Source: Escherichia phage vB_EcoP_PE007. From it: DNA of 64,000 nucleotides. The notes under the pieces were generated by a model. That model was given only the letters and a program-made list of their open reading frames with translations. It was not told the DNA's origin and ran no database searches. How positions within the stretch are numbered: position 1 is the first letter of the stretch; every line of letters starts with the position of its first letter. The DNA lies in the sequence record OQ938542.1; one strand, written 5' to 3'. The position numbers were made by a program, and so were the translations under genes. This document shows positions 602 through 61,104 of this stretch, piece by piece.

Positions 602-626
602 TTCTTGTATCTATAGGAGAGTAAAA

Positions 627-1017: not shown

Positions 1018-1042
1018 GACTTAAACATCCTGGAGCCAGGAA

Positions 1043-1694: not shown

Positions 1695-1876
1695 AATTAA
1701 CACAGTCCCAAGCAATCTTCCTTCGTATGGTTCAAGGTGGCTCTGCCACCAGCAACCGTAATAACAAAACCGCACAGTCTCTTAAAAAGCTGGGCTTAGT
1801 TCAGTTCAATACTGGTCTTGGGTGGTCATTAACCCCTATCGGTGTACTTCAACTCAACGAAATGAAAGGTAACTAA
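1691..1876 (+). CDS. hypothetical protein (TTG start)
   Basis: TTG at 1691 with ggaagga RBS; alternative ATG at 1727. Confidence 0.35.
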   Translation: MKLTQSQAIFLRMVQGGSATSNRNNKTAQSLKKLGLVQFNTGLGWSLTPIGVLQLNEMKGN

Positions 1877-2206
1877 ATGAAAACTTTACTTAAAGGTATT
1901 GCAGTAGCTGCACTGATAGCTTTGGCCCCAAGTGCACAGGCAATTGAACCAGAACCAATTCTGGAAGGTGCTCAGGCTTACCTGGATGACACCCGTGATG
2001 TGTTCGGGCAAGGGTTCTTCATGGGCAGCATGGTTGCTTACATTGAGAACACAAATAACTGTGTTCCTGATGGTATTAAGTATTCAAGCATTCTGCCTAA
2101 GATTGCCAAAGTAGTTATTTATGACTCTGCGATCCTTAAGATGAAGAATACATCTCAAATTATTGCGTACTCAGTGCACAAGGCATATCCCTGCACCAAA
2201 TCTTAA
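1877..2206 (+). CDS. secreted/periplasmic small protein
   Basis: N-terminal signal peptide MKTLLKGIAVAALIALAPSAQA with AQA-I cleavage-type site; two Cys. Confidence 0.55.
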   Translation: MKTLLKGIAVAALIALAPSAQAIEPEPILEGAQAYLDDTRDVFGQGFFMGSMVAYIENTNNCVPDGIKYSSILPKIAKVVIYDSAILKMKNTSQIIAYSVHKAYPCTKS

Positions 2207-2240
2207 TTAGTAATTCCATTAGCTTTAGGAGAGTAAGTAA

Positions 2241-3293: not shown

Positions 3294-3300
3294 TCACAAC

Positions 3301-4476
3301 ATGAACCAATTTCCTCAGCACACACTTAGTGATGAACAACTCATGCGTGAGTATGACCGTATTCAGGCTCAAGCCTTCCTGGGTAAGTCTGCTGCGTTCT
3401 TTGGTTCATTGCTGTGTAGTCTTAAATTCTCATGGAAACGCGAGGATTGCCCCACTGCATGTACTGATGGGATAGAACTCCATTTCAACCCAGACTTCTT
3501 TATCTGGATGTGTCCAGATGCAAGAGAAACAGTATTAATGCACGAGTTATGGCATGTGGCATATCTACATGACATTCGTCGTGGAAGCCGTGACCCGGAA
3601 GTCTGGAACCAGGCTTGTGACCACTTCATTAACCTTCAGTTAGAAGAGGATGGTTACAAGTTCACTGGTATTGACAAAGGCATTTGCAAAGACCCTCAAT
3701 ATAAGGATTGGGTCGAAGAAGACATCTACGATGACCTGATGAAGAACCCTCAGAAAAGGCAGAAGCCGTCAGGGGGTGCTGGAGCAGGTCTTGCTGGCGA
3801 CATAAAATCCCCCACTTCGGGGCAGTCCCAGGGTGCTGTTGTCAACAACGTAGTTCGTGCAATGCAGAGCCAGAAAATGGCTGGTGGACAGATGCCTGGT
3901 AAGGGTGCTGGACGTATGGAAGAGGTTATTACCCAATTCCTTAAACCAGTGGTTCCTTGGCAGGAAGTTCTGATGAACTTCTTTACCGACATTGATGACA
4001 CTCACTATACGTGGGCCAGACCAAACCGTCGTTATACTGACACCTATCTACCTTCACTGGAAGATGATGAAGGACGCCTACGACACTTAGCTTATTTTGA
4101 GGATGTATCCGGTTCTATTAGTAGTGCTGACTCTCTGCGTTTTAACTCAGAGGTTGCCTACGTTAAGAGCCAGTTCAATCCTAAGAAGATGTCCCTAATT
4201 ACCTTCGACGATATTATCCAGGAAGAAATAGACATCACTGAAGAAGATACTTTCGAAGAAATTAAAATTACTGGTCGTGGTGGTACAAGCCTCGTGCCTG
4301 TACGAGATTGGATTATTAAGAATAAGCCAACCGCTGCAATCATATTCTCCGATATGTATGTTCGTCCAATGGAAGAATTGCCATTTGATATCCCTATCAT
4401 CTGGTGTGTTCTGAATAATCCCAATGCTACCGTACCTTTTGGGGAGGTAGTTCATATCCCTAAAGGAATGAAATAA
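3301..4476 (+). CDS. VWA-like domain protein with HExxH metallopeptidase-like N-domain (DUF2201-type)
   Basis: HELWH motif; C-terminal half resembles a VWA-like fold; immediately follows the MoxR ATPase as in bacterial MoxR-VWA pairs. Confidence 0.55.
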   Translation: MNQFPQHTLSDEQLMREYDRIQAQAFLGKSAAFFGSLLCSLKFSWKREDCPTACTDGIELHFNPDFFIWMCPDARETVLMHELWHVAYLHDIRRGSRDPEVWNQACDHFINLQLEEDGYKFTGIDKGICKDPQYKDWVEEDIYDDLMKNPQKRQKPSGGAGAGLAGDIKSPTSGQSQGAVVNNVVRAMQSQKMAGGQMPGKGAGRMEEVITQFLKPVVPWQEVLMNFFTDIDDTHYTWARPNRRYTDTYLPSLEDDEGRLRHLAYFEDVSGSISSADSLRFNSEVAYVKSQFNPKKMSLITFDDIIQEEIDITEEDTFEEIKITGRGGTSLVPVRDWIIKNKPTAAIIFSDMYVRPMEELPFDIPIIWCVLNNPNATVPFGEVVHIPKGMK

Positions 4477-4982
4477 TGGTTGTTAATGGTAATTCTCTAT
4501 ATCGTTCATCTCAGTTGCTGGATGTCCCAGACCGTAAGATATCCGAACATGGTGTAAGCTATGGATTGGGTGAAGCTGGTTACGATATTCGTATCAAACA
4601 AGATATTACCTTCTATCGCTTATTTGGGTTGATTCCAATGGTGAAAGTCGTTGATGGAAACAAAGTATCACGCCATCTCGGTAAATTCACATTGGCTTCA
4701 GCAATTGAGAAGTTCAACATGTCCCCATCCTGTGTAGCTATCGTTCACGATAAGTCTACGTGGGCAAGACGTGCATTATCAGTGTTCAATACCGTAATAG
4801 AACCAGGATGGAAAGGGTATCTCACCCTTGAACTGGTCTATCATGGTCGTAAGAAATTGCATATCCCAGCTGGTGCTGGGATAGCTCAAGTATTATTTCA
4901 TCTGGTTCAAGAACCTGCTAATTACAATGGCAAGTATATGAACCAGGAAAACAAACCAGTAGCTGCAAGAAGCAGTAAATAA
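4476..4982 (+). CDS. dCTP deaminase / dUTPase-family protein
   Basis: GYDIRI motif and C-terminal VIEPGWKGYLTLELV resembling the dCTP deaminase signature. Confidence 0.6.
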   Translation: MVVNGNSLYRSSQLLDVPDRKISEHGVSYGLGEAGYDIRIKQDITFYRLFGLIPMVKVVDGNKVSRHLGKFTLASAIEKFNMSPSCVAIVHDKSTWARRALSVFNTVIEPGWKGYLTLELVYHGRKKLHIPAGAGIAQVLFHLVQEPANYNGKYMNQENKPVAARSSK

Positions 4983-4991
4983 GGAAACAAC

Positions 4992-5201
4992 ATGTCAATA
5001 TTTCAAGTAACTCATGCAACCTCAGATGTACGTGTAACCATTAATGCTGCAAATGTAGTAGGAGTGGAACAAATTCCACTGTCTGATTGTGCACGTATCA
5101 CATTCGTAAATGATAGTACTATGGACACCAAAGAAACCTATCGTTCGGTACGTAATTACCTGAAGAAAGCTCTTGCTCCTACAAGCAAAGACGCTGAGTA
5201 A
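4992..5201 (+). CDS. hypothetical protein
   Basis: ATG with aaggaaa RBS. Confidence 0.45.
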   Translation: MSIFQVTHATSDVRVTINAANVVGVEQIPLSDCARITFVNDSTMDTKETYRSVRNYLKKALAPTSKDAE

Positions 5202-5274
5202 GTAACTGCCTAAATAGCCCAGCATAGTTGGGCTATTTGTGAAGAAACTAACTCAACCCCACATAGGAACCATC

Positions 5275-5517
5275 ATGGAATCTTTAGCAGCAATCCTTGT
5301 TATGTTGTTTGTATTAGCTGTATACCTTATCCCTACTATCATTGCTTTCTCACGAGGCCATGCCTCTAAGTGGGGTATTGGTGTGCTTAATATCGTATTA
5401 GGCTGGTCTTTAGTCTTCTGGGTAGTAGCACTGATTTGGTCGCTGTCCAACAAAGGACAGAACCAAGTTACAAATGTAACTGTTGTCCAAACCAATGGTG
5501 GCAGTAAAGCAGAGTAA
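5275..5517 (+). CDS. superinfection immunity (Imm-family) membrane protein
   Basis: YLIPTIIAFSRGHASKWGIGVLNIVLGWSLVFWVVALIWSL matches the Imm_superinfect pattern; ATG 5275 with aggaa RBS (track start 5239 is GTG). Confidence 0.55.
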   Translation: MESLAAILVMLFVLAVYLIPTIIAFSRGHASKWGIGVLNIVLGWSLVFWVVALIWSLSNKGQNQVTNVTVVQTNGGSKAE

Positions 5518-5591
5518 CTAATCGTAATAGTCTCATGAGGCTATTACTGGAAGTTACTTCCAGCTCATTGCTTATCCATCTCCTAATCCAA

Positions 5592-5616
5592 GCCCACCTA
5601 ACCCGTGGGCTTTTTT
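5592..5616 (+). terminator. rho-independent terminator
   Basis: gcccac-ctaaccc-gtgggc followed by T6. Confidence 0.7.
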
Positions 5617-5632
5617 AATTACAGGTACTCTT

Positions 5633-6013
5633 ATGTCAAACAGACGAAATGGTAAGTCTATCTTTCAAGGGATGGACTTCGGTAAGCTGGAACAAACTGC
5701 AATGCTTGCTTTGGGTAAAACTGTCCATGACCAAGTGGAGAGTAAAATTGAATTAGATCTTTATGCAACAATGCAGACTCTTATTCAGAAAAAATGGATT
5801 ACTAGCAGACCTTTTCCTTCATACATTCCCCCAGAACCACATCTGAAATCTAAGGTAGACCGTATCATAGATAAGTTCTGGCTTAGCCCGTGTTATGACG
5901 AAATGCATCTTTACTTGGCTCAAATACAAAAGAATCCTTATACCAAAGATGTATTTAAGGGCAAGAGCACTACCCATCACTACCCCTGGTATAGAAGAGG
6001 TAGTAAATACTAA
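5633..6013 (+). CDS. hypothetical protein
   Basis: ATG ORF following terminator 5592-5616. Confidence 0.45.
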   Translation: MSNRRNGKSIFQGMDFGKLEQTAMLALGKTVHDQVESKIELDLYATMQTLIQKKWITSRPFPSYIPPEPHLKSKVDRIIDKFWLSPCYDEMHLYLAQIQKNPYTKDVFKGKSTTHHYPWYRRGSKY

Positions 6014-6456
6014 TGCGTATCCCATTCCTAAGAAAAAGAGAACGAAATCCTGTTCTTTATAATAAAGGCATAGAGGATGAGTATGAACTCAACCGTAAAG
6101 CCCGTTCCTACATAACAAAATTATTCATGGGGACTAAAAACCCTGATAGATTATTAGACTTTGTTTTTGAACAAGTCTTTATCATATACAGCTTAGCTAT
6201 GTCTGCTGGTTCACAAGAAGTAAGTGATAAGGCAAGAAATGCTCTCTGTATGCTCCGTAAAGAGTATGAAGCTCTCATGTATGGAGACTTGTACTCATTT
6301 AAGGAAGAAACCGCTGTAGCGTGTTCTGTGGCTCTTACTGAAGGTGTAGCAGTATTACAGGAACTACCTCGTAGTGAGTTTAAACTGGTATATGTTCAGG
6401 TTAAGAGAATCACAGAAACGAGAAGTGGTATCACTAACTATCTAAGGTCATTCTAA
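6013..6456 (+). CDS. hypothetical protein
   Basis: ATG overlapping upstream stop. Confidence 0.45.
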   Translation: MRIPFLRKRERNPVLYNKGIEDEYELNRKARSYITKLFMGTKNPDRLLDFVFEQVFIIYSLAMSAGSQEVSDKARNALCMLRKEYEALMYGDLYSFKEETAVACSVALTEGVAVLQELPRSEFKLVYVQVKRITETRSGITNYLRSF

Positions 6457-7400
6457 TGATTAAGGCATCAGTAATTGCAGATTCCGTTCATCCAGAAACA
6501 GGAACCCGTATCACAACCTTTGAATTGGTTTATCCCCGATTCATTCACAGTGAGTTTATGACTCACCGTGTATTCAACCGCAATGCTTCAAGTAGCCGTG
6601 CTATTCCTACCTCTAAGTTAATCGAACAGGTTCGCAATGAACCAGTGATGCCAAGTCACTGGGGCAAGAACCAGAAAGGTATGCAAGCAGATGAAGAACT
6701 CACTCCTATGGAGATTGAGGATGCTAAGTTTATCTGGGATAACGCTGCATCTGCTGCTGCTGTGTATGCTGAACAGCTACGTCGTGGGCAAGTACATAAG
6801 CAGATTGTTAACCGCATTCTGGAACCATTCACTCATATCCGTGTAGTAGTAACTTCAACTAGCTGGGCTAATTTCTATGGACTGCGTGACCACAAAGATG
6901 CACAGCCAGAGATTCGTGAACTGGCTCAAGCAATGCGTATGGCACATGAAGAAAGTACACCAAGGGCATTACCATATGGACAATGGCATCTGCCATATGT
7001 TGCTCATATTGATCGTGTTGGGGCTTACAATTTCTGCAAACGCAATCGAATTACACGCGATGAACCAAGTGATGCAGAAGTGCATGGACTACTCCTCAAA
7101 GTAAGTGCTGCACGCTGTGCCCGTGCCTCATATAACAACTTTGAGGGACGCCCTTCTACTATCGAAGAAGATCTTGGCTTATTCGCTAAGTTAGTAGAAA
7201 ACCAACCTATTCATGCTTCTCCAACGGAACATCAGGCTACACCTATGAACCTTGGTGAGAAGTATGTGAATAACATGAACCCAGTTACCTGGGAACAAGG
7301 TGTTACATCCATGGATAAAGAAGGGAATCTGTACTCAGGTAACCTGCTCCACTTTATCCAATTCCGTAAATTAATTCCTGGTGAGACTATTACTGAATGA
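6456..7400 (+). CDS. ThyX-like FAD-dependent thymidylate synthase
   Basis: THRVFNRNASSSRAI resembles the ThyX RHRxxSxNxxSxR signature, with Thr in place of the first Arg. Confidence 0.5.
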   Translation: MIKASVIADSVHPETGTRITTFELVYPRFIHSEFMTHRVFNRNASSSRAIPTSKLIEQVRNEPVMPSHWGKNQKGMQADEELTPMEIEDAKFIWDNAASAAAVYAEQLRRGQVHKQIVNRILEPFTHIRVVVTSTSWANFYGLRDHKDAQPEIRELAQAMRMAHEESTPRALPYGQWHLPYVAHIDRVGAYNFCKRNRITRDEPSDAEVHGLLLKVSAARCARASYNNFEGRPSTIEEDLGLFAKLVENQPIHASPTEHQATPMNLGEKYVNNMNPVTWEQGVTSMDKEGNLYSGNLLHFIQFRKLIPGETITE

Positions 7401-7636
7401 AAAAACTAGCTCTATACGCAATGCTAATTAGTACCCTACTAACACTGACCTACGCATACAAAGTTGCCTTTGTCGTAGAAACAGATATGCAGTTCATTCG
7501 AGCTAGTATTCTGTTCTTTGTAAGCGAGATTGGTTTATGGTGTGTTTACTACTTTGCTCGTGACTACGAAGCAATTCGTGAGCAAGAAGAAGTGAAAAAA
7601 CAAATGATACGATTTGTAGAACAAAATCGTAAGTAA
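7397..7636 (+). CDS. small membrane protein
   Basis: Two hydrophobic segments; followed by terminator 7643-7667. Confidence 0.5.
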   Translation: MKKLALYAMLISTLLTLTYAYKVAFVVETDMQFIRASILFFVSEIGLWCVYYFARDYEAIREQEEVKKQMIRFVEQNRK

Positions 7637-7642
7637 ACCTAA

Positions 7643-7667
7643 GACCTCCTCCGGGAGGTCTTTTTTT
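7643..7667 (+). terminator. rho-independent terminator
   Basis: gacctcc-tccg-ggaggtc followed by T7. Confidence 0.75.
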
Positions 7668-7696
7668 GGTTTCAATTAACTCTTTTAGGAGGGCAT

Positions 7697-7909
7697 ATGC
7701 CTGCTAAATACCGTATCAAAGACACACCCGTAATGTGTGAGGGTGAGAAGGGCGACATTGTATATGCCTGTATCCAGGATGATTTCAATGCTGCTCAGAT
7801 GCTAACCCAAATGACAAATACACTGCATGTGTCAGTAACACTGGACCCTACCGGTGACTATCCATGCTTCCCTATTCCTGCCCATAACCTGGAGCAAATT
7901 CATGATTAA
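7697..7909 (+). CDS. hypothetical protein
   Basis: ATG with aggaggg RBS. Confidence 0.5.
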   Translation: MPAKYRIKDTPVMCEGEKGDIVYACIQDDFNAAQMLTQMTNTLHVSVTLDPTGDYPCFPIPAHNLEQIHD

Positions 7910-8216
7910 CCCTGAAGTAATTCATAGTAAAACCGGTAAGGCTGTCCCACTCAGTGAGATTGCAGTAACTGGTGATATTGCTGCTTGTCCAGCAAACATT
8001 GCCTCTCTATGTATGTGCATTGCTGCACTGGCAGAGGAACGTAAGTTATGGCTGGAGCCAAGCAAGGAAATGGTACTAGCTGGTATGGCTGAACTGAATG
8101 CACTTCTGAAAGAAATGTATGACGAGAATGGTCAATTAGTTGAACCTACTGATGACCAAATTTCAGACGCTGTAGTATTTGTCCTTCAAGCAATGGCAGG
8201 TAAACGCAATGGTTAA
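7902..8216 (+). CDS. hypothetical protein
   Basis: ATG at 7902 with ggag RBS, ATGA overlap with upstream stop; track start 7854 is further upstream in frame. Confidence 0.45.
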   Translation: MINPEVIHSKTGKAVPLSEIAVTGDIAACPANIASLCMCIAALAEERKLWLEPSKEMVLAGMAELNALLKEMYDENGQLVEPTDDQISDAVVFVLQAMAGKRNG

Positions 8217-8400
8217 TGTAAATATCGCCTCAGAGAAAACGTATAGCATTCAGATTAATGGCTTAACTGAGTATCAAGTCTTATTCCTAATGAATGCTTT
8301 TCAAAATAGTCCAGTGGGTCACCATCCTAATGATGAACCACGAGAAGAAGCTGAACTTCGTAAAGCTATTTTTGATAAGTGTAAACAAGTTCTAATGTAA
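8209..8400 (+). CDS. hypothetical protein
   Basis: ATG at 8209 in frame with the TTG track start at 8179. Confidence 0.35.
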   Translation: MVNVNIASEKTYSIQINGLTEYQVLFLMNAFQNSPVGHHPNDEPREEAELRKAIFDKCKQVLM

Positions 8401-8427
8401 GCAACATTTAATCTGGAGAGTAAATAA

Positions 8428-10995
8428 ATGTTAGTTGCAGATACCAACGAAATAGCTACCTCAGCGACACTGGGTAGCAAAGAAACAATTGCCTTTGGCA
8501 TCTCTGATGACCCGGCATTCTTTCATGTATTAAGTACTTCCCTGTATAACAATCCTACTCTGGCAGTAGTCCGTGAGACTATCTGTAACAGTTGGGATGC
8601 TCATATTGAAGCAGGTAAGACTGATACCCCTATTCGTATCACTATTGATACAGACAACTTTATTACCTTCCGAGACTACGGTAACGGCATTCCAGATGAA
8701 CTCATTGGTTCCATTTATGGTGTCTATGGTGCATCTACTAAGAAGGCCAACAGTAGCGTTACTGGTGGCTTTGGCCTGGGATGTAAATCTCCATTCGCTT
8801 ATACAGATAGCTTCCAGGTTACTTCATGGAACCAGGGAAAGATGTCGGTATATAACGTAGCTAAGGCTGCGATTGAGAATGATGGTAAGCCCGGTATTGT
8901 TCCTATTGTTACTGGTATTCCTACTGAGGAATCTGGCCTGGAAGTTAAATTCCAGTTAGGCAAACATGACGTAAATACCTTCGTGCATTACATCACATCA
9001 ATCGTATTTAACGGTGAGATTAAAGCTGAGCTTAGTATCCCTAAACTAGTTAAAACAGAAGCAGGCAATAGTATTCAACAGGGTGATTACACTTTATTGA
9101 ATACGCTGGGTATGTCATTTGAACCTGGTTCATATGATATGTCTGATAGATGGTATCAAGGCTATATGGGTAGCAGTAACATATACGTTCGCTACGGTAA
9201 TGTAATGTACCCAATTGTATCCAGCCCAGCTAGTGAAGAAGCTGTAGACCTTATCCTCAACTTCATGAATATTATTGGTGCTTCTAATCTAGTAGTTCAG
9301 GCTGCACCAGACACTTTAGCTATTGCTCCTAGTCGTGAAACGCTGTCTAACCAGAAGTTAACCGACGATGGTATTACTACTCTATGTGTAGATTTAGTAG
9401 ACCGTATGGAGAAAGAGATTAAGGCTAAGATTCCTGAAGCTATTAAGCAAGTTGAAGAATATGCCTCTAAATCCTCTACTCGCTTTTGGGAATATCCATC
9501 TTTCCTACTTGCTGTTACAGACAGAACCGTCCAACGTTATATGTCCTCTAGCTTATGGGCTAAGCAACGTAAGCATCACATCAAACACTGGCGTAATCTA
9601 TCCAATAAGGCTTTGTTAGCTCGCCCTGAGTATGCAGGTCTTAAGAAACTGTATGGCAAGGCTATGTGTGCTCTTAAGGATACTCGTGAAGAAAGTACAT
9701 ACTCTCCGTTCCAGGAATTAGTATATCGCCATCTACACTTACCACAGCTTGCTGCTTTGAAAACCTCTGGTATTAAGTGGTCTGGTTACATAATGAACCA
9801 AGGTAATCGTGTTGACCTGGTGAAGGGTAGACTTACTGACTACTTTAAGATGTATCATAACTCCCATCAGGGTATTGGCATATTTACTACCAAGAACGTT
9901 GTAGTTACTCGCCGTTTATCTGATTGTGCAGACTCTTTTTCATACTTCCCTGAGTACAATCGAGGTGATCTGGAGCGTACAGCTTTTGTTCACGTCGTTG
10001 GTCCTAAGAAGGGTGCAGCAGAAGAAGCTGTAACTAAGTTCACTGCTATGGGTTATCGGGTAATTGACCTTACTCAATATAATGAGTGGGACAAACCAAC
10101 TAACTTCCGCAGAGAACAAGCTAAGATAGCTGCCGAGAAACGGGCTAAGACAATAGCTGCCAATAAAACCAAAGCAACTAGTAAAACCAATGCTCTGATT
10201 TCATTGAATGCAGTTCTTGGTGCTACCCAGGTGCGGAATAAAAATGGAGATTGGGAACCCAAGCCGTATATTCAGAAAGAATTTGCTGACCCAAGTCGCC
10301 ATGAAAAGTACGGTTTCGTTGAAGTAGAACAGCCTAAGTACTACGTACTAGCCAATCAGGTTGGTTCAGGTAACCCAGTAACTGCCAGTATTGGAACCAT
10401 GTGGAAATGGTATGAGTTATCCGATGAGATGAAAGCAGAGACTGTTGTCTGTCGTAATCAAATTGAAGCTAACAAGGCCAAACGACGTGGTGCTATCCAC
10501 ATTGATGATGTTCGCTTTAGTGAACTGATGTCTGTTATTACCAGTAAAGGATTCAAGAAATATGTTACTGAACATCGTATAGGTATTCTGGAATACGTAG
10601 GACTGGATGACAGAGAGTATTGGGAAATCCTAGACATACTGGGTCTAACCTTCAAACCATTACAGAATCTGATTTTTAAACCAGAATATGAATGGGCATA
10701 TGACTTTCTACGGAATCGACCACACGACAACAAAGAAAAACTTGTTGAAATGGGTTGTATTAAGTCAGTGGATGACTTAGAGCCATATGCAATAATGACT
10801 AATCCGCGTAATCATAAGTACTTTAAAATACTTAATGATTACAAAGAATTATTCAGTTATAGCTGGAATAAAAATGACATCCTACAGACGCTGGACTTAG
10901 GTAGTTTGGTCAAACACCTTAAGAAGAATCCAGAGGATATTCCTGGGTTTAAGTCCCTCTACCGTAATCGTCTAAATAAACTGAAAGGTAACTAA
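8428..10995 (+). CDS. rIIA: rIIA-like protein (GHKL ATPase domain)
   Basis: N-terminal GHKL boxes: RETICNSWDAH, DYGNGIP, GGFGLGCKSPFAYTDS; paired with a downstream large partner as in rIIA/rIIB. Confidence 0.6.
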   Translation: MLVADTNEIATSATLGSKETIAFGISDDPAFFHVLSTSLYNNPTLAVVRETICNSWDAHIEAGKTDTPIRITIDTDNFITFRDYGNGIPDELIGSIYGVYGASTKKANSSVTGGFGLGCKSPFAYTDSFQVTSWNQGKMSVYNVAKAAIENDGKPGIVPIVTGIPTEESGLEVKFQLGKHDVNTFVHYITSIVFNGEIKAELSIPKLVKTEAGNSIQQGDYTLLNTLGMSFEPGSYDMSDRWYQGYMGSSNIYVRYGNVMYPIVSSPASEEAVDLILNFMNIIGASNLVVQAAPDTLAIAPSRETLSNQKLTDDGITTLCVDLVDRMEKEIKAKIPEAIKQVEEYASKSSTRFWEYPSFLLAVTDRTVQRYMSSSLWAKQRKHHIKHWRNLSNKALLARPEYAGLKKLYGKAMCALKDTREESTYSPFQELVYRHLHLPQLAALKTSGIKWSGYIMNQGNRVDLVKGRLTDYFKMYHNSHQGIGIFTTKNVVVTRRLSDCADSFSYFPEYNRGDLERTAFVHVVGPKKGAAEEAVTKFTAMGYRVIDLTQYNEWDKPTNFRREQAKIAAEKRAKTIAANKTKATSKTNALISLNAVLGATQVRNKNGDWEPKPYIQKEFADPSRHEKYGFVEVEQPKYYVLANQVGSGNPVTASIGTMWKWYELSDEMKAETVVCRNQIEANKAKRRGAIHIDDVRFSELMSVITSKGFKKYVTEHRIGILEYVGLDDREYWEILDILGLTFKPLQNLIFKPEYEWAYDFLRNRPHDNKEKLVEMGCIKSVDDLEPYAIMTNPRNHKYFKILNDYKELFSYSWNKNDILQTLDLGSLVKHLKKNPEDIPGFKSLYRNRLNKLKGN

Positions 10996-26334: not shown

Positions 26335-26405
26335 ATTCAAAGTAGCATTGCACTAATCCATCCCGGAGTTCAAAGGCCAAACATGGAGCAGTGCTACTTT
26401 GAATT
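26334..26405. repeat. long inverted repeat (14 bp perfect, about 18 bp with one mismatch)
   Basis: aattcaaagtagca at 26334-26347 pairs with tgctactttgaatt at 26392-26405; left arm overlaps the CCA end of the tRNA-like element. Confidence 0.6.
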
Positions 26406-26779
26406 AGAAAGATTATGGGGGTAAGTCGTAACCATACGACGGCGTAAGTACCAGATGAGACTTCTGGACGCCCCTACCAGATTTGGGGTGTAACAGTTAA
26501 ATCCAGTTGCCGGAAGTGCTATTCTAGATACGCTGCCAATGTGTGAACGGTAAGGCTGTACAGGACTCGGACTCCCGCCTCAAACCAAAGTCGCCAGGTA
26601 CTTATGGCAAACGGGTAGTAACGAACTAGTCATTCGTCAAACGCCCACCCTATTATGAGTCAGCAAGAACGCCTTCACTTAAACTTAAACAATATAAGCT
26701 TAACGCAATAATTATGTAGGGGTATGTAAGGATTGCGAAGAAGGAGCCAGTTAAAGTCTGGCATGACTCACTCATTTAT

Positions 26780-26853
26780 GCCCACTTAGCTTAGACGGGG
26801 AAAGCAACCGACTAATAATCGGAAGGTCACTGGTTCAAATCCAGTAGTGGGTA
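26780..26853 (+). tRNA. tRNA (hand-folded anticodon AAU; identity uncertain)
   Basis: Acceptor gcccact/agtgggt (7 bp, one GU), D-arm gctt/aagc, anticodon arm accga-ctaataa-tcgga, 5-nt variable loop, T-arm actgg-TTCAAAT-ccagt, discriminator A; 74 nt. Confidence 0.65.
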
Positions 26854-27080
26854 CTTATTAATAGAGAACATAGTCCTGATTGCATTGCACTCTAAAGACA
26901 ATGCCGGTGAGACAGTCCGGCACTCTAATTATTGAAAACATACCTAACGGTGTGAGTATGAGCAGACTATAATGCTCAATTACAGTTAACTATTATCGGA
27001 CTATCAATCCTGTTTGCTGGTACAAGCACCGGTGGTAATAGTTAACTGGCCTAGCCTCGTTAGCTGCGTTAAAGCTACTA

Positions 27081-52293: not shown

Positions 52294-52543
52294 GTGAATC
52301 TTCCTTTGGTCGGAATCGTATTAATCTGCCTATGATGTTTAAGGCAAACAGTGCGATTACAATATTGGAGCCATGGGGAATATCTTCCAGGATGTGACGA
52401 GGTAATCCTGTCAGCATTGGTTGAATGATATCTATGGCAGAAAACATAATTAACCCGAGCGTACTAATCTGGATGGATGCCCACTTCCAGCATCTTTTCC
52501 AGTTAGGTACTAGCTCTACCTTTCTTTTTAGCCTGCGAACCAT
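52283..52543 (-). CDS. holin candidate (two TM segments)
   Basis: ATG 52543 with gggaga RBS (track start 52609 is GTG); two hydrophobic segments; adjacent to endolysin. Confidence 0.5.
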   Translation of the reverse strand: MVRRLKRKVELVPNWKRCWKWASIQISTLGLIMFSAIDIIQPMLTGLPRHILEDIPHGSNIVIALFALNIIGRLIRFRPKEDSHES

Positions 52544-52857
52544 GCGAATATCTCCCGTCTTGCAGCAGCCAATACACCAATAATTGCACCTGCCCCAGCC
52601 CACACCCACTTACCAAAAATTCCAGCACCAACAACTTTATGCTTAATGGTGATGAACTCTTCAATAGTAGGTTCATTCTTAGCTAAGCTATCCTCCACAT
52701 TCTTTAGTCTATTGCCTATGTCATTTATTGAATCCCGTAGTTCTACCAGAGTTTCCTCCAGTTTCTCACGGTCCTGCCTGTCCCTTGTCTGGTTCTCAAA
52801 CAGAGTCTTCAATCGTTCCTCCAGTCTGACTAGAAGCAGTTCGCCTGATTCGTTCAT
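52528..52857 (-). CDS. lysis-cassette membrane protein (holin/antiholin candidate)
   Basis: Charged coiled-coil-like N-terminus and C-terminal TM GAGIFGKWVWAGAGAIIGVLAAA; first gene of the lysis cluster. Confidence 0.45.
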   Translation of the reverse strand: MNESGELLLVRLEERLKTLFENQTRDRQDREKLEETLVELRDSINDIGNRLKNVEDSLAKNEPTIEEFITIKHKVVGAGIFGKWVWAGAGAIIGVLAAARREIFAWFAG

Positions 52858-53077
52858 AGTATTACCGTAGTTGTGTAGTTAGAATCCCCAATAGGGTCGT
52901 ATCATAAGATGACTCTTAGATAATACTTAGTATGATGGGGTACATCCAGACATAGTGTCTGGTAGCAACCCATGGTGGATGGTATTTAGTTAGGTATGTT
53001 TAACATATCCGGGCAAGTAATTACCCTAACAGCAGTATCGGTTAGGGTAATGCAAACAGTAAACTCTATATGAGAAA

Positions 53078-53094
53078 AGGCCCAAACTGGGCCT
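53078..53094 (-). terminator. terminator after tail fibre gene
   Basis: aggccc-aaact-gggcct directly after the stop at 53104; T-rich on the minus strand. Confidence 0.5.
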
Positions 53095-53103
53095 TAGTTT
53101 TAA

Positions 53104-55218
53104 TTAAATCAATCCATAAACTGCATTGTGTATTACGACACCCCCAACAACTGAAGAAACATTAAAATTAATTTCAGCTTTGTAGGCTCCTTGTGGAACG
53201 CAATCCACCAAAGCATAAAAGTTGAACGTGTTTACCACTGGGATGATATATCCTATGGAATCCGCAACAGTATTTCCTTGCTGGTCCAGGAATCTAATTG
53301 ACGCCAGGGTGGTTGTTGTATTTTTAGCCCAAAAACCAAGCTGAAAATAACGACCCGGTTCACAATCAATGATTGTTTGGGTGAAGTTAGCTGCTGCATC
53401 TGCTGATGGTACAGATAAAACAAAAGAAGTTGTAAACATTAAATTGTTAGGAACATCGTTTGCTGTAGTAGCAGTGACAACGCCTGTTCCAGTTTGCGAG
53501 AGTGTCCAGTTAGATGTGTTTTCAAACTGTCCTGAGCCATTGCTAATGCTATTAATATAAGGGCTTACAATGCTTCCTAGATTCCAGTTAGTTGTAATAA
53601 ACCCTGCACGAGGGAAGCACCCTCTGGACATTACTTTTTTGCTAGCGCCACCTATCAACTGTCTTGTAGCAAATCCAGTAGCAATCGTTGTGTTACCGTA
53701 GAGGGGCAATGAGCAGTTATTTAAACTAACTACCCCGTCACCATTACTAACAATAGGCACTGTACTGTAGCCTTCCGGAAGCAGAATAGTAGAATCTTTA
53801 ATACTGAGGCGTGAGCTTCCACTCACAGTAAAGCCTACAAAACTCTGCCCAGGTTGATACTCAATATTACCGTTAGCAAATACTAAGGTAGCATTACCAC
53901 TTAATGCCACTACTGGATCGAAGTAGCCTGCCTTTTTACCTGCTGGTAATGAGCATGAATCAAAGATGAACTGCCCATTCTCAAATGTAAATGGACCCCC
54001 ATTATCAACCATCCAGCAGTGGTTGAATTTTATAACCTCACCAGCATTAGCCGGGGAATTAAAGATTACAGAGTTAGTAAAACTGCGAGAAATGGTGCAC
54101 TTATCAAACAGGATACGGTATGCATTATCTTTAAACTCAATACCTGCGGTAGATATAAACCCGCAGTTAGATATACGTAATTCTGCTATCTCCCCTCCAG
54201 TACTACTGCCCAAGCACATCTTTCGAGTACCTTTACCTACAAAGGAAATACCTGTTAATAGGGCAGTAGCATTAATGGCATCACGGGCTGTGTAATCTGT
54301 ATTAGAATTGATTACGGTTAAGTAATACTCTCCTGTTACACCTTCCACTTCCGTAAGGGTACACTTATTGGCTCCTACTAAAGCCCCCTTAGATACATCC
54401 AGTACGATAGGTGTACTAATAGTCCCTGATGTAGGTACAAGACAATCGTAACCGGCAGAGTTTACCTTGTTAATGAACGGAGCAATGTCCCCAGTACCAG
54501 TATAGCCTGCATCGTATACCGTAGCAGTACCTTCAAAGAACTTACGCTTCCAGACCACACCTGCACCGGTGAAAGTTACAACTTCATCTACAGGAGTAGT
54601 ATTAGGAACCGCAATCATAATACCCCCACCAACGGAAGAACCTGAGTATGAATCTAGCATTACACTAGACCCTACTGTTGCTCCGACAGAGGCCAGGGCA
54701 GTTACGTCGGGTACACTACCAATTAAAGTCATACCATCCTGAGATGCCAACTGAGCACGCAAATTAGGATCCGTTTGGGACTTCCAATCCGTGTTGCCAA
54801 CAGGGTTGGCCCCTTCAACAATAGTTACGGGTAGAGAACCTAAGTAGGTATAACCAATACCATTATGCATCAAAAGCTCATTTCGAGTATTTACTACTAA
54901 GCCCGTAGTAAATGAATCAGATAAGCATACAAACTCTCTACGTGCAGCAGCCAGTTCGCCTAAATCAATAGTACCAGCTGAATGAACCAGGACTGCGTGT
55001 TCGTTAAGACTAACAGCAGTAGTTCCTACCGGAAGTACAGGTAATGAGTAAGCACGTTGGGTAGCCTTATCATAAATTACTTTGTATCCACCCAAGTCCA
55101 CACCTACAGAAAAATAAACCACCTCATTCTGCTTAACACCAAACTTACGGGCAATGGCTTGCTTATTGGTAAGAATACCAGTGGAGCCTTTACCACCTTG
55201 GGAGAACATCTCGTTCAT
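53104..55218 (-). CDS. tail fibre / tailspike protein
   Basis: 704 aa, Gly/Thr/Ser/Asn-rich beta-rich composition, adjacent to the second spike gene, followed by terminator. Confidence 0.5.
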   Translation of the reverse strand: MNEMFSQGGKGSTGILTNKQAIARKFGVKQNEVVYFSVGVDLGGYKVIYDKATQRAYSLPVLPVGTTAVSLNEHAVLVHSAGTIDLGELAAARREFVCLSDSFTTGLVVNTRNELLMHNGIGYTYLGSLPVTIVEGANPVGNTDWKSQTDPNLRAQLASQDGMTLIGSVPDVTALASVGATVGSSVMLDSYSGSSVGGGIMIAVPNTTPVDEVVTFTGAGVVWKRKFFEGTATVYDAGYTGTGDIAPFINKVNSAGYDCLVPTSGTISTPIVLDVSKGALVGANKCTLTEVEGVTGEYYLTVINSNTDYTARDAINATALLTGISFVGKGTRKMCLGSSTGGEIAELRISNCGFISTAGIEFKDNAYRILFDKCTISRSFTNSVIFNSPANAGEVIKFNHCWMVDNGGPFTFENGQFIFDSCSLPAGKKAGYFDPVVALSGNATLVFANGNIEYQPGQSFVGFTVSGSSRLSIKDSTILLPEGYSTVPIVSNGDGVVSLNNCSLPLYGNTTIATGFATRQLIGGASKKVMSRGCFPRAGFITTNWNLGSIVSPYINSISNGSGQFENTSNWTLSQTGTGVVTATTANDVPNNLMFTTSFVLSVPSADAAANFTQTIIDCEPGRYFQLGFWAKNTTTTLASIRFLDQQGNTVADSIGYIIPVVNTFNFYALVDCVPQGAYKAEINFNVSSVVGGVVIHNAVYGLI

Positions 55219-55269
55219 AACGACCTCTTTGTTTTTCTAGTAAACCCCTCCGAAGAGAGGGGTATAGAT

Positions 55270-58125
55270 TTAACTAATTTGGTACATAGTTGCTGTACCA
55301 TCATCAATGCATCGCCACAGGGTATGATGATACTGCGGTATAGTGAAGTCCACAGAACCCTTAGGAATAATATTGTTTGCTGCATATTTAACAACACCGT
55401 CTGTGGTATTAGATGCAATCATCAAATCTCTTCCGTAAGGTGCTCCATAGATATGGAATATATTAACAGCAGCACCGGTAATGCGTAGGTTAGCAGCCGG
55501 ATGTATTTTAGTAAGGTCAATATCACCAGAATCAGTAACATCAACAAAGAATGGTTTACCCCCATCATACCCATTCATAGTAAGACCTGAATCGGCATAG
55601 ATGTTAATACGAGCATCAATAGGCAACTCATTGCCAGAGCAGTGTGCACCACCAACAAGTAAACCACCTTCAGTACGACGTCCATTAGAGTCTGATTCGT
55701 AGAAACCAAATTTAGTATTGTTAATGTTGCCACTAACTACCTTAATTCCACACAGGCTTACTGAGTCAGCAGTGGCATCAATGCCGTAACTACAGTTGAC
55801 TACCTTACCATTTCCAACAAACAATCCATAATCTGATGGGTCACATCTAATGAACTTAACCCCATTAAAGTCAATATCTGTACCTGACAGATAAGCTGGT
55901 TTAATAGTACCCTCTGGAGCCATAAAGGTATCGCCAGTAAAGCTAATTACACTACCAGAACCAGTAATGAAATAGGGCACATTCTTACGAGGTACAGATA
56001 ACTTCGTAGCAAGATATCCAACATCTGTTGGAATAAATACGTTATTACAGAAAAAGACTCTGTAACTAGTACCTAAATCAATAGGAGCTTTAACATATGC
56101 AAAACGGTCATCAAGAGTAGAACCTGTACTAACTGGTTGAGCTACCTCAAAGTGGCAATGATTAAAGAACACAAACCATGGGTTACCGAATTTAATCATG
56201 TAAGGGGTAAGCTCAAAATGACAACCAGTGAAGTATACGTAGTTACTTTCCTGAATCATGGTCACAGCAGGTTTATCAACGCTACCACTTTGCAAGAATG
56301 AGCAATTGGTAAAGTATGTATCCTGAATATACCCAATTTCCAATGCTTGGTTCGGGAAGAACTGGATATTAATACCTTCAACTATACCCATCCAACCTAT
56401 GGCATTAAGATACAATCCTACATCACACTGACCATCTACACCCCAGATAGCAAAGTCACGTAAAGTCATACCAAAGCAATAAGCACTACCCGAATCTACG
56501 GATAGCATACGACCAGTAGCAACATGCGAATTAAATACAGTACCTCGCACAGGTGATGGTGAATGCATATTAGTATCTACAGTACGTAGACCTTGAGCGC
56601 CTTCCCCATACATACAGAGTGCATAATCAGCCACCAACGGACTATTGATAGCGTATTTACCGGATGGAGCAAATACAGCATACCCGACCTTGGCTGCATT
56701 AATTGCTGCTTGCGTACCTGCATAGTCCTGGCTTTGTGACAGGCTAGTCACAAAAGGATAAACCATCTGAGCAGCGGTGAGTGTACTAAACTTCTCACTC
56801 AGTGGATGTAGCTGTCCATCCCCAATTGCACCAAAATCTTTGATATTGATAGTGTCAGCTAACTTCAACTGAAGACTACGTTCAATAGAAGCTGCCATTG
56901 GGGACTTGTGCCCAATTCTGGAAGTACCTTGCTCAGATGCAAGAGAATCCTGGTACTGTTTGAGTGCAGTAAGTGCAGGATATGGTGCAGCAAGTAAATC
57001 CACTTCAATGTTACCTGGTGCGTAAACAAGTTTACCAGCAGCAACACTCACGATGTAAACGTTAGATGGTAATGCAGGTAATCCGTAGGAAGTCTGCTCT
57101 GCTACCGAATAAACAACCTTCTTGCCATTCAGAGTCTGAGTAGTATCAGTACTCAGGATTACATCTGAGTCTTTTACATTAAGGGTACGAGCAACTTCCT
57201 GAAGAGTATGGTCTGATGTTTCCAGTACCTGCGTCTCTCCACCAATCTGTACAATCAGACGGTCATTGGTTGTCAGTGGTTCAGTAAGAAGTATACGTTG
57301 GTTATCCGGGTCAGCAGTATAGGACTCAGTAGTTAATCCTTTATACAAACGAAGTCCATTCTTATACACGGCAGGAATAGACTGGAAGGTATAAGGAATA
57401 GCAATAACCTGCTCACCACCTACAGCAGCACCATTGTTGTATAACCAGTTAATCTGAACCCAGTCATTAACATTGGGGTTGTCCGGTACAGCAGGAACCC
57501 CAGTCAGAAGGAATACTACTTCATCACCCTCTTCCAGAGGCTGAGCCAGAGTTACGGACAGGTTATCTGCGTTAAACTCAAAGCCTCGCCCTACATACTG
57601 CATGTCACCATTAATAATGATAAAAGGTACACCCACAGTACCGTCAGGTACGTTAATTGTGGTTTCACCACCAGTAGCGGAACCATTGCTGTATACCCAA
57701 GGAATATAAGCACCTTCACTGGAAGAAGTACCACCACCACCAGTAGAGCCAGAAGTAGCAACAGTAATCCATGAACCGGTTGCAGTAGTGTCATCGGGTA
57801 AAATACCTGTACGGTCACCCTCTACGTATAAGTAGTCAGTTACCTGATGGTCACCTGTACGAGAGAAGCCGTAGATACGTGCATACTTAGCTTTAGTAGT
57901 TAATGCTTTAAGTTCTGCTTCAGACTGTACACCAAGTACCATTCCATACTGGTTAAGGAAGTCATAAATGAGTTTAAGATTACCCAAGTTACAGTAGACA
58001 GTTCGAACCACATGGTAAGCATTACCAAGTAATGCATCTACCATTGGGTCATTGGAACTGTTTTGGCAGTAAGGATTGGTCCAATCCTGCTTTGCATCAA
58101 AGGGGGTATGTGCGTTCATCGCCAT
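55270..58125 (-). CDS. tailspike with pectate-lyase-like beta-helix domain
   Basis: DFGAIGDGQ motif typical of the pectate lyase superfamily; N-terminal tandem duplicated ~85-aa domains. Confidence 0.6.
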   Translation of the reverse strand: MAMNAHTPFDAKQDWTNPYCQNSSNDPMVDALLGNAYHVVRTVYCNLGNLKLIYDFLNQYGMVLGVQSEAELKALTTKAKYARIYGFSRTGDHQVTDYLYVEGDRTGILPDDTTATGSWITVATSGSTGGGGTSSSEGAYIPWVYSNGSATGGETTINVPDGTVGVPFIIINGDMQYVGRGFEFNADNLSVTLAQPLEEGDEVVFLLTGVPAVPDNPNVNDWVQINWLYNNGAAVGGEQVIAIPYTFQSIPAVYKNGLRLYKGLTTESYTADPDNQRILLTEPLTTNDRLIVQIGGETQVLETSDHTLQEVARTLNVKDSDVILSTDTTQTLNGKKVVYSVAEQTSYGLPALPSNVYIVSVAAGKLVYAPGNIEVDLLAAPYPALTALKQYQDSLASEQGTSRIGHKSPMAASIERSLQLKLADTINIKDFGAIGDGQLHPLSEKFSTLTAAQMVYPFVTSLSQSQDYAGTQAAINAAKVGYAVFAPSGKYAINSPLVADYALCMYGEGAQGLRTVDTNMHSPSPVRGTVFNSHVATGRMLSVDSGSAYCFGMTLRDFAIWGVDGQCDVGLYLNAIGWMGIVEGINIQFFPNQALEIGYIQDTYFTNCSFLQSGSVDKPAVTMIQESNYVYFTGCHFELTPYMIKFGNPWFVFFNHCHFEVAQPVSTGSTLDDRFAYVKAPIDLGTSYRVFFCNNVFIPTDVGYLATKLSVPRKNVPYFITGSGSVISFTGDTFMAPEGTIKPAYLSGTDIDFNGVKFIRCDPSDYGLFVGNGKVVNCSYGIDATADSVSLCGIKVVSGNINNTKFGFYESDSNGRRTEGGLLVGGAHCSGNELPIDARINIYADSGLTMNGYDGGKPFFVDVTDSGDIDLTKIHPAANLRITGAAVNIFHIYGAPYGRDLMIASNTTDGVVKYAANNIIPKGSVDFTIPQYHHTLWRCIDDGTATMYQIS

Positions 58126-58832: not shown

Positions 58833-60422
58833 TCACACAATGTATGAACGTAGTGGGTTAACACTATCTTCTTCTTCATCATCCCACATAGGGTCACCCT
58901 TGTTATCCACCATAGTCATACCTGCCTGTGGTTTCCAAGGATTGAGATAACCCAGCATGGAGATAGTATCAATACAGTCATCCTTACCTTTGATTCCATT
59001 AATGGTAGCTAGTTTAATCTGGCCCATGAACAGACCCATAATAGTTGAATCTCTCAACTCTTCCGGGAAGTACATCTTACCAGCTTTGAACCATGGAACT
59101 ACCAGGTTAAATCGTGACAGCTTAGAGGTTACAGGACGTATACCCGGCTTACCACCTTCAGAAGATGCAAAGTTAAAGAAGACATTACGGTTAATCATTT
59201 CTTTCTGAAGGAGCGAAATGAATCCACCTTGCTGCCCTGTGATTTCGACACCAACGTTTTGTGGTTGGTATTCTTGAACCAGACGGAACAGGTCATCAAA
59301 GTTTTTATCCATAAGCTGACGATTAGCCACACCATCAACCCAGAACCAATCTCCATTAGAACTATAAGCCCAAACTGATATGACACTATAGTCACTGGTC
59401 TGTTTCTCCGATGTAGCAAAGTCAGTTGTAATATAATAGTTGTAGCAGGACTTCATCCTTAATAGTTGCTGTCTGCTATACCATCTAATTTCACTATCCT
59501 GAACCAGTCTCTCATCTTCAGAGCTAATACGGAGCATAAGTTCCTGATAGAAGCCTGCCAGCTTACCCGTCTTAACTGCCATGTCATATTGGGCTTTGAT
59601 GTAGTCGTAGGAGAAACGGTCATCCCATGCACCTTGAAATTCTTCCCTACTACAAGGGAACTTCTCACACACAGGCCATACGTTGACATCCCATGCACCA
59701 GACTCTACTGCTTCAATGATAATATCTTCCTTATTAAAGGGAGTACCATTGAAGATTACTTTACGACGTGTAGGGTCAAGAGCATGGTTCACACCTTTAT
59801 AAACGGTGTCTTTAATAGCTTCCATGCTAGTCTTGGAGTTAGCATCACCATCACTAATCAAGTCATCTAGTACACAGAGTGTTGGACGCTTACCATATAT
59901 CTTCGTACCACGAAGACCTGTCTTAGCACCAAACAGCTTAACACCAAGACGATGCCCTTCTACATTACGGAACTCCAGAAGGTTATCCGTAAAGGTAGCT
60001 TCTGGTATCCATTGCTGGAGGAACTCACTATTTTTGTAACGGAACTCAATATTCTTACGTGCAGACTTAGCACCGTTATCCATTGAGTCAGATACGTAAA
60101 TCATTCCTTCTACTTTACCCAGACTAGGTAAGTGACCAAACACTGCCAGGAACAAAGTAAAGTATTCCATGAACACAGCAGTCTTACCTGCACCACGGAA
60201 GCACAGGTTAACTACATACTGGTTCGGGCTAATCATCTTATCCAGCATCTTCAAGTGAACTGGGGGTGTTTTGTTGGATTCACCTTCTTTGCCATTAACC
60301 AACTTAATAAAGTTGGCAAAGGTAAGAGCAAACTGACTGGGAACATAGTTGGAAGAGTTTAGGTGGGAGTAATCCACCTGGTCTAGCCATTCATCCAGTT
60401 CCTGTTTAATTAACTCAGACAT
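58833..60422 (-). CDS. terminase large subunit
   Basis: Walker A-like CFRGAGKT, Asp-rich nuclease region CVLDDLISDGD; ATG 60422 with gagga RBS (track start 60443 is GTG). Confidence 0.75.
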   Translation of the reverse strand: MSELIKQELDEWLDQVDYSHLNSSNYVPSQFALTFANFIKLVNGKEGESNKTPPVHLKMLDKMISPNQYVVNLCFRGAGKTAVFMEYFTLFLAVFGHLPSLGKVEGMIYVSDSMDNGAKSARKNIEFRYKNSEFLQQWIPEATFTDNLLEFRNVEGHRLGVKLFGAKTGLRGTKIYGKRPTLCVLDDLISDGDANSKTSMEAIKDTVYKGVNHALDPTRRKVIFNGTPFNKEDIIIEAVESGAWDVNVWPVCEKFPCSREEFQGAWDDRFSYDYIKAQYDMAVKTGKLAGFYQELMLRISSEDERLVQDSEIRWYSRQQLLRMKSCYNYYITTDFATSEKQTSDYSVISVWAYSSNGDWFWVDGVANRQLMDKNFDDLFRLVQEYQPQNVGVEITGQQGGFISLLQKEMINRNVFFNFASSEGGKPGIRPVTSKLSRFNLVVPWFKAGKMYFPEELRDSTIMGLFMGQIKLATINGIKGKDDCIDTISMLGYLNPWKPQAGMTMVDNKGDPMWDDEEEDSVNPLRSYIV

Positions 60423-61104
60423 CTGTAATGTCCTCATCTGCACGTACTAGTTTAGAACCAGCAACCTCTTTGGTGGGTACACCACTATTGATTGCATTAA
60501 TTTGCTGCTCAGCCAATGCAGCAAGTGTTGCCTTGAGGTCAGTTAATCCGGAGTTCTCTCTCAAGTCCAGATTGATATTCGTTACCTGATCTTTCGGTTT
60601 AGCTAAGTGAGTAAGGATAGAGTTAGCTGCATCACATCTTACCTTCTCACTTGCTGCTGTAGTCATCAGTTCGACCTGAACGTTGATTGCCTTCTGATAG
60701 TTGTCCTGGTTCACAATCCACACTGGAACCAAACTTTGTTCCATGATGAGGTTAACTAACTTACCTCTGTGATATGCAGATACATAAGCACTAATATCTT
60801 TCTCGCTGGTTCCTCGTGCAACAAGTTCTGCTTGTCGGTTAGGGAATGTCTTGAAGTAGGCTTCCTTATTGGAATAACCCATGTGTTTATAAGTCACATA
60901 CTGAACTGCATTCATGTAGTCCTGTGTCTTAAACTTACCTTCCTTCATTACACCAGAGTAGGAGATAAAGTTTTCACGGAAGGACTCAGCAACCAGTTGG
61001 TCTTGGGTTATGTTGTTGATCGTGTCTACCAACTCCTGGGTCACACTGTTTTTGAAGTTAGCAGGTAAGGCATTAACAATCTGCTGCTTAGTTAGTTCAC
61101 TCAT
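60415..61104 (-). CDS. putative terminase small subunit (gp69-like position)
   Basis: First gene of the leftward late operon, directly upstream of the large terminase; by position only. Confidence 0.35.
   Translation of the reverse strand: MSELTKQQIVNALPANFKNSVTQELVDTINNITQDQLVAESFRENFISYSGVMKEGKFKTQDYMNAVQYVTYKHMGYSNKEAYFKTFPNRQAELVARGTSEKDISAYVSAYHRGKLVNLIMEQSLVPVWIVNQDNYQKAINVQVELMTTAASEKVRCDAANSILTHLAKPKDQVTNINLDLRENSGLTDLKATLAALAEQQINAINSGVPTKEVAGSKLVRADEDITDV

Follow-up and report, generated by a model that had tools for sequence, protein, structure and literature searches.

A predicted G7C-type two-branched tailspike module with an exchanged primary head in the Bp4-like coliphage vB_EcoP_PE007

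Escherichia phage vB_EcoP_PE007 very probably recognises its hosts through a G7C-type two-branched tailspike complex (gp66 plus gp63.1), judging from the homology of two adjacent minus-strand genes in the DNA analysed here, a window of 64,000 nucleotides (nt) from sequence record OQ938542.1 (Table 1). A preliminary description of this DNA, made from the letters alone, had reported open reading frames (ORFs) of 951 and 704 amino acids (aa) as spike or fibre genes; both were recovered at the positions given for them, and by homology both are tailspikes. The larger is the gp66-like primary, or branching, receptor-binding protein (RBP1), and the smaller is the secondary tailspike at the gp63.1 position (RBP2). 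The features that mark a G7C-type module, namely the gene order, a gp66-type anchor, the XD2/XD3 domains (by sequence matches) and a gp63.1-type RBP2 N-terminus, were all found. With homologues of both spikes, solved structures among them, at E values of 0 or near 0, a chance resemblance can be dismissed. The backbone of the window shares 97% nt identity with Escherichia phages PD38 and Bp4, and by this measure the phage is a Bp4/PD38-like Gamaleyavirus (Enquatrovirinae, Schitoviridae).

In the assembly that we propose, an RBP1 trimer would be fixed to the tail by its N-terminal anchor of ~80 aa, the sole part that it retains in common with the N4 gp66 appendage, and would present XD2 and XD3 beyond the anchor. 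RBP2 would dock onto XD3 through its conserved N-terminal ~160 aa. Both spikes would end in a beta-helix domain for binding, and most likely for cleaving, a surface polysaccharide, and the two different heads would confer two polysaccharide specificities. With RBP2 belonging to the CBA120-TSP4 / O78 O-antigen glycosidase subtype, O78 Escherichia coli would be a predicted host. A physical complex of primary and secondary spikes has been shown for G7C (PMC8825819) and for B2 gp48/gp49, and the branched gp66/gp63.1 complex of G7C is that of Prokhorov et al. (2017, Mol Microbiol 105:385), as cited in PMC8825819.

Domain map of the two spikes

RBP1 matches PHROG 12242 ('tail protein', E=6e-280), and its residues 3-420 are 68% identical to G7C gp66. 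Among solved structures, residues 1-405 match gp82 of Shigella phage Moo19 (9D80, E=5e-155), residues 16-378 match gp49 of Shigella phage B2 (9D83, E=1e-137), residues 140-380 match CBA120 TSP2 (6W4Q, E=2e-29), and residues 123-211 match the N-terminal fragment of CBA120 TSP4 (7REJ, E=7e-13); entries 9D80, 9D83 and 9D84 were tied to the Moo19 and B2 proteins through the primer sequences and gene names of the Moo19/B2 paper. Residues 3-79 also match aa 1-73 of the '60 kDa protein' of 9LC0 (E=4e-5), and N4 gp66 carries the annotation '60 kD VP' in the N4 record. Further along, residues 421-509 match the beginning of the beta-helix in the Pseudomonas phage tailspikes 4RU5 (E=3e-17) and 4RU4 (E=2e-14). 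The length of 951 aa is counted from the first ATG. The true start is probably the third codon (M3 at 58119), which would give 949 aa, because this ATG shares the sequence ATGA with the stop codon of gp67 and lies 6 nt after GAGG, and because the alignment with N4 gp66 begins there and an identical protein already deposited in NCBI is 949 aa long.

The tail anchor of RBP1 (aa 1-80) is 100% identical to that of Bp4 and 92% identical to that of G7C gp66, and it matches PHROG 29955 ('appendage'). The N-terminus aligns with aa 1-72 of N4 gp66 at 36% identity (E=1.5e-8), and the rest of N4 gp66 is without a match. By these alignments the gp66 gene is remodelled, not replaced: its first ~75 aa remain N4-gp66-like, whereas beyond the anchor branching domains and a beta-helix stand instead of the rest of gp66. 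In N4, gp64 is a tail assembly protein, gp65 is the non-contractile sheath and NfrA-binding protein, and gp66 forms the appendages. The N4 record gives the order gp67, gp66 (appendage), gp65 (sheath, receptor-binding protein), gp64, gp63. As the preliminary description had proposed, the two spikes occupy the N4 gp64/gp65/gp66 slot between gp63 and gp67, and no homologue of N4 gp64 or gp65 was found in the whole window (tblastn, E<=1e-3), which sets the locus apart from the N4-type sheath apparatus. The order gp63 / RBP2 / RBP1 / gp67 / terminase on one strand is the same as in G7C (gp67, gp66, gp63.1, gp63). The departure from N4 is shared by the whole genus, has already been characterised in G7C-like phages and is not peculiar to this genome. 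While the N4 receptor is the NfrA protein, the receptor predicted here by analogy would be a polysaccharide.

The tandem duplication seen earlier near the RBP1 N-terminus was recovered as an internal repeat of ~80-85 aa (residues ~139-214 against ~224-299, 32% identity, E=5e-12, pairwise BLASTP). By its position and matches it corresponds to XD2 and XD3, a known pair of T4 gp10-like branching domains, defined in G7C gp66 as repeated beta-jellyrolls like those of T4 gp10 (PMC8825819). In G7C, gp63.1 binding requires XD3 and does not require XD2 (PMC8825819), and by analogy XD3 of RBP1 would be the docking site for RBP2. The TD1-type domain of RBP1 is 34% identical to RBP2 aa 20-100 (E=2e-7).

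For RBP2, residues 1-229 match G7C gp63.1 (4QNL, E=1.3e-54), and the first ~160-230 residues also match CBA120 TSP1 (4OJ5), CBA120 TSP3 (5W6F) and B2 gp48 (9D84) with E values of 1e-44 to 1e-57. Residues 20-704 can be aligned over their full length with residues 7-697 of 5W6H, the crystal structure of CBA120 TSP4 minus its N-terminus (1138 bits). The window resembles CBA120 in that RBP2 matches the catalytic part of TSP4, that XD2, XD3 and TD1 of RBP1 are homologous to TSP2/TSP4, and that the docking logic is shared, with gp10-like domains binding the N-termini of partner spikes. In contrast, CBA120, a myovirus, has four spikes and anchors them differently to the baseplate (AD + XD1), and the TSP4-type head sits here on a short TSP1/TSP3-type N-terminus and not on the anchoring spike. 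G7C shares with the window the genus, the gene order, the RBP1 anchor, XD2/XD3/TD1, a homologous RBP2 docking region and a hairpin after each spike gene. It differs in both heads: RBP2 is TSP4-like and of predicted O78 type where G7C gp63.1 is an SGNH deacetylase acting on O-antigen (4s/O22), and the gp66 head of G7C is unrelated to the head of RBP1 (16-24% identity).

Exchange of the RBP1 head

Relative to Bp4, the head of RBP1 has been exchanged by recombination, and on the alignments this is a clean swap of a receptor-binding domain (RBD). The breakpoints of the exchanged cassette (Table 1) were mapped with blastn against Bp4, EC1-UPM, ECBP1, FSL SP-076 and SS9, a comparison with relatives that the preliminary description had called for. 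The DNA match to Bp4 (96%) stops at 55239 and restarts at 57116; for EC1-UPM and ECBP1 it restarts at 57052 and 57868, respectively. Across the Bp4 gap, the window aligns with FSL SP-076 at 76% nt identity (54910-57840) and with SS9 at 79.5% (54902-57203). FSL SP-076 is a Salmonella Ithacavirus from another subfamily, and SS9 is a Salmonella Kuttervirus of the Ackermannviridae. The protein comparison follows the same course. Identity to Bp4 RBP1 is 98-100% over aa 1-300, 78% over aa 301-340, 47% over aa 341-395 and 16% over aa 396-440, whereas identity to FSL SP-076 RBP1 is 78-84% across aa 216-440, where the Bp4 identity collapses, and 78-95% from aa 341; from aa 441, identity to SS9 TSP2 is 88-94%. 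By alignment, one junction of the swap lies in or just after TD1 and the other just beyond the RBP1 stop codon, in the spacer. In the spike gene that comes next, about 105 codons from its start are conserved in DNA between the window and FSL SP-076/SS9.

The preliminary description had suggested that a receptor-binding module was swapped. This holds in that N4 gp64 and gp65 are absent and the RBP1 head is exchanged, but the former is genus-wide with respect to N4, and the local swap is finer, being limited by alignment with Bp4, the closest relative, to the C-terminal ~610 aa of RBP1. Bp4, PD38, EC1-UPM and ECBP1 share the backbone (97% nt) and RBP2 (97-98% aa), and Bp4 and EC1-UPM also share RBP1 aa 1-300 (95-100%). 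They part from ~aa 340 onward: in Bp4 the protein is split (600 + 304 aa) and bears another head, in EC1-UPM it is a different protein of 928 aa, and in ECBP1 it is truncated at 375 aa. The gp66-like gene of Bp4 (locus 4503-7225) is annotated as two ORFs of 600 aa and 304 aa, and the gp66-like protein of ECBP1 is stem only, like Shigella phage B2 gp49. Thus, RBP1 heads seem to have been repeatedly lost or split in the genus.

The same head is found in RBP1 of the Ithacaviruses FSL SP-076, SP154 and S5 and in TSP2 of the Kutterviruses SS3, SS9 and SeKF_64, at 86-88% aa and 76-83% nt identity, and in the FSL SP-076 and SS9 sets a second spike gene follows the head. FSL SP-076 RBP1 is 80% identical over aa 16-951. 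These phages differ in host (Salmonella), in subfamily or family and in their partner spikes. They also differ in the anchor, which is only 41% identical in FSL SP-076 and is missing from SS9 TSP2, which begins at XD2. The spike that follows the shared head in FSL SP-076 (locus 3044-5173) is a Det7/P22-type endorhamnosidase, and in SS9 (locus 3974-6217) it is a 747-aa spike whose C-terminus resembles intramolecular chaperone domains of the endosialidase type or L-shaped-fibre type.

Folds and predicted receptors of the two heads

AlphaFold2 (AF2) was run on the C-terminal 556 residues of RBP1 with a 52-sequence alignment. The model (aa 396-951; mean predicted local distance difference test, pLDDT, 90.4; predicted template modelling score, pTM, 0.87) shows an unbroken run of short strands, as is typical for parallel beta-helices, and a beta domain at the C-terminus, and Foldseek concurs on the beta-helix with a probability of 1.00. 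On this model, the RBP1 head is predicted with high confidence to be an enzymatic-type beta-helix domain, so the locus does not consist of helix-less genes kept in sheath-bearing N4 relatives. The DFGAIGDGQ motif, which the preliminary description had likened to pectate lyases, is present as a cap motif at aa 430-438 (nt 56812-56838). Precomputed PF12708 hits are present in many homologues of the head at 50-75% identity, and D/E/H/R columns are conserved across the 52 sequences, including near-invariant DFGAxGDG, RDF and others. At 82-88% aa identity, the family of this head comprises four Salmonella Ithacavirus or Kuttervirus groups and coliphage Jgk1 (88% for SS9 TSP2, 86% for FSL SP-076, ~81-82% for Jgk1). 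A prophage protein of E. coli / E. fergusonii is 75% identical, and at ~50-57% identity the head is joined to head-binding domains of the P22 type (PF09008) or to fibre N-termini of the T7 type (PF18668).

In the N4-like coliphage Jgk1 (PV292302.1, locus 2316-6162), the spike with this head is apparently the only one between gp67 and gp63, where an RBP2 homologue is missing, which argues that the head has a target on E. coli. The isolation hosts were serovar Dublin for FSL SP-076 and Enteritidis for SP154, and the second spike of both is a Det7/P22-type endorhamnosidase. This spike already explains their hosts, so that the RBP1 head shared with FSL SP-076 must see something else. For the target of this head, the Salmonella data were therefore set aside as uninformative. 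The homologues in E. coli prophages of complete genomes were likewise rejected as a guide to the RBP1 target, as they reach only ~67% nt identity and are too distant and too poorly serotyped to indicate a serogroup. These distant prophage tailspikes occur in the O114:H49 strain 90-9280 (NZ_CP024240.1), in three other strains and in a clone of pig isolates, and ETEC-2264 (NZ_CP023349.1) is among the chromosomes concerned; the nt matches span part of the query and may offer a lead to the receptor. In the protein search, E. coli homologues with P22-type head-binding domains were found at 49-54% aa identity. Tentatively, the SS9/FSL SP-076-type head may see an O-antigen or glycan that is common to, or cross-reactive between, some Salmonella and E. 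coli serogroups, giving a Bp4-like coliphage a cross-genus second host range, although we consider this doubtful. If true, the head would be a cassette that moves among Enquatrovirinae, Humphriesvirinae and Ackermannviridae via the conserved TD1 and the downstream spacer.

By analogy, the RBP1 head may target an O-antigen. An unlikely alternative is a capsule (K-antigen) depolymerase, which would strip, for example, K80 from O78:K80 strains before RBP2 cuts O78. An endosialidase and a K5 lyase do occupy these two positions in other Gamaleyaviruses (UE-S5a, UE-M3), and the host of EC1-UPM is O78:K80. However, the nearest homologues of the head come from Salmonella phages and the farther ones are P22-like prophage tailspikes, which classically target O-antigens; Bp4 and EC1-UPM infect their hosts with quite different RBP1 heads, and the beta-helix fold is compatible with O and K substrates alike. 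It is less probable still that the chief role of RBP1 in this phage is to carry RBP2 as a structural adaptor, with a C-terminal head that is dispensable or inactive cargo. Such an arrangement would fit ECBP1 (375 aa) and B2 gp49 (410 aa), which retain only the anchor, XD and TD1 yet carry RBP2, as well as the split gene of Bp4 (600-aa and 304-aa ORFs). Here, in contrast, the head is an intact 556-aa ORF with a high-confidence fold, its homologues keep the same columns, and its 82-88% aa identity in three phage groups argues for functional selection. Neither alternative is favoured, nor is the one for RBP2 given below.

RBP2 is predicted to be an O78-specific glycosidase spike because of its homology to TSP4 and the association of this spike type with O78 hosts. 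TSP4 has been reported to cleave the O78 O-antigen, and its G7C-like homologues to use the same receptor (PMC8825819, PMC8432352, PMC10408124). RBP2 shares 97-98% aa identity with the spikes of Bp4, PD38, ECBP1 and EC1-UPM and 79% with those of PhAPEC5 and PhAPEC7 (tblastn). Unrelated siphoviruses, myoviruses and podoviruses also have spikes that are 55-75% identical to it, and for at least eight of these the recorded host is an O78 strain. Many phages isolated on O78 strains share this RBD. That RBP2 has drifted from TSP4 and recognises another serogroup is very improbable: it is only ~73% identical to the Kuttervirus TSP4-2 spikes (BSP101, S8, PhaxI), slightly under the 75% aa identity used as the subtype cut-off by Sorensen et al. 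(PMC8432352), but it is 97% identical to the spike of EC1-UPM, isolated on O78:K80, at least eight phages with O78 as recorded host have homologues at 60-75% identity, and the receptor of TSP4 is stated to be recognised also by G7C-like homologues that are 74-79% identical (PMC8432352). The preliminary description had named a capsule or an O-antigen as the probable target; for RBP2 the homology supports an O-antigen much better than a capsule.

The shortfall from the subtype cut-off is one of several points that weigh against the proposed assembly and its functions. The PF12708 match of RBP1 stays below the gathering score (17.6 bits against a cut-off of 27), and the model leaves the head as a candidate hydrolase, lyase or binder only. 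The Jgk1 record is marked 'UNVERIFIED', with the spike gene frameshifted near locus position 4355. XD2 is without an assigned role even in G7C (PMC8825819).

The spike pair is an ordinary, largely explained and well-understood module. Published or deposited work already covers its architecture, the duplication of gp10-like domains, the kinship with Kuttervirus spikes, the O78 subtype and the swapping of heads within Gamaleyavirus, with eleven RBP1 and seven RBP2 subtypes described among sixteen Gamaleyavirus genomes. No phage record in the searched collection covers at least 80% of the spike region, which makes the union of a Bp4-type stem and an SS9/FSL SP-076-type head a new combination. The known picture of Schitoviridae adsorption is unchanged, and the value of the module is practical, in host-range prediction and engineering. 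It predicts O78 E. coli, of the avian pathogenic (APEC) type, as one host and flags a second polysaccharide target. It also provides a clean natural head swap, whose breakpoints in TD1 and the spacer are the junctions used in building chimeric spikes.

Flanking genes, hairpins and other features

On the minus strand, the genes are ordered TerL, gp67-like adaptor, RBP1, RBP2, terminator-like hairpin, gp63-like ORF, DUF7940 protein, GH108 endolysin, spanin and portal. The adaptor is 98% identical to G7C gp67 and 51% identical to N4 gp67, and the DUF7940 protein occupies the slot of a Bp4 gene annotated as holin (N4 gp62-like).

Table 1. Positions of the spike genes, their domains and neighbouring features in the window.
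Feature	Position	Strand	Remarks
gp63-like ORF	52528-52857	-	Low-coordinate flank of the spike pair
Terminator-like hairpin, AAGGCCCA-GTT-TGGGCCTT then TTCTC	53077..53095	-	9 nt past the RBP2 stop codon
RBP2, secondary tailspike at gp63.1 position, 704 aa	53104..55218	-	Predicted O78-type receptor-binding subtype
Docking peptide and TD1/TD2 head domains, RBP2 aa 1-160	54739..55218	-	Conserved N-terminus; would attach RBP2 to RBP1 by homology
Stem-loop, CCCCTC-TCTTCG-GAGGGG then TTT	55245..55262	-	In the 51-nt spacer between the spike genes; read from sequence
Exchanged RBD cassette	55245..57115	.	RBP1 codons ~337-951 and ~25 nt of spacer; in blastn without similarity to Bp4/EC1-UPM
RBP1, gp66-like primary (branching) tailspike, 951 aa	55270..58125	-	ORF from first ATG
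Neck, right-handed parallel beta-helix receptor-binding/depolymerase domain and C-terminal beta domain, RBP1 aa 396-951	55273..56940	-	Predicted (AF2)
TD1-type domain, RBP1 aa ~305-380	56986..57213	-	Paralogue of RBP2 aa 20-91; recombination junction here
XD3, second gp10-like domain, RBP1 aa ~216-300	57226..57480	-	Structure matches and internal repeat
XD2, first T4 gp10-like beta-jellyroll branching domain, RBP1 aa ~136-215	57481..57720	-	7REJ and 6W4Q matches
Virion (tail) anchor, RBP1 aa 1-80	57886..58125	-	Homologous to N4 gp66 appendage N-terminus
gp67-like adaptor, 236 aa	58116..58826	-	Pfam SU10_adaptor; stop codon overlaps RBP1 start
TerL	58833-60443	-	ORF

The ribosome-binding site of RBP2 is AAGAGG, 6 nt before its ATG. 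In the G7C record, an equivalent repeated hairpin is marked behind both gp66 and gp63.1. A scan of the region for sigma-70 promoters returned 11 sites, below the shuffled controls (15.4), and no promoter was called. Antisense ORFs of 63-143 aa within the spike genes were dropped as genes, being embedded in strongly conserved coding sequence and without support.

The RBP2 stop codon is separated from the gp63-like gene by a non-coding spacer of about 250 nt (52858-53103). On the minus strand, this spacer contains a perfect 11-bp inverted repeat, ATTACCCTAAC...GTTAGGGTAAT, at about 53020-53051, and it holds a second palindrome, CCAGACA...TGTCTGG. At the same position, Bp4 has a 536-bp insertion that encodes orf14, a hypothetical protein of 217 aa, on the plus strand; the window lacks this insertion.

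Elsewhere in the window, ARAGORN identified a tRNA-Ile with the unusual anticodon AAT on the plus strand (26780-26854). It sits in a gap (26381-27003) free of ORFs of at least 50 aa, and the record of the related phage PD205 annotates a 'tRNA-Pseudo/OTHER' in the homologous stretch.

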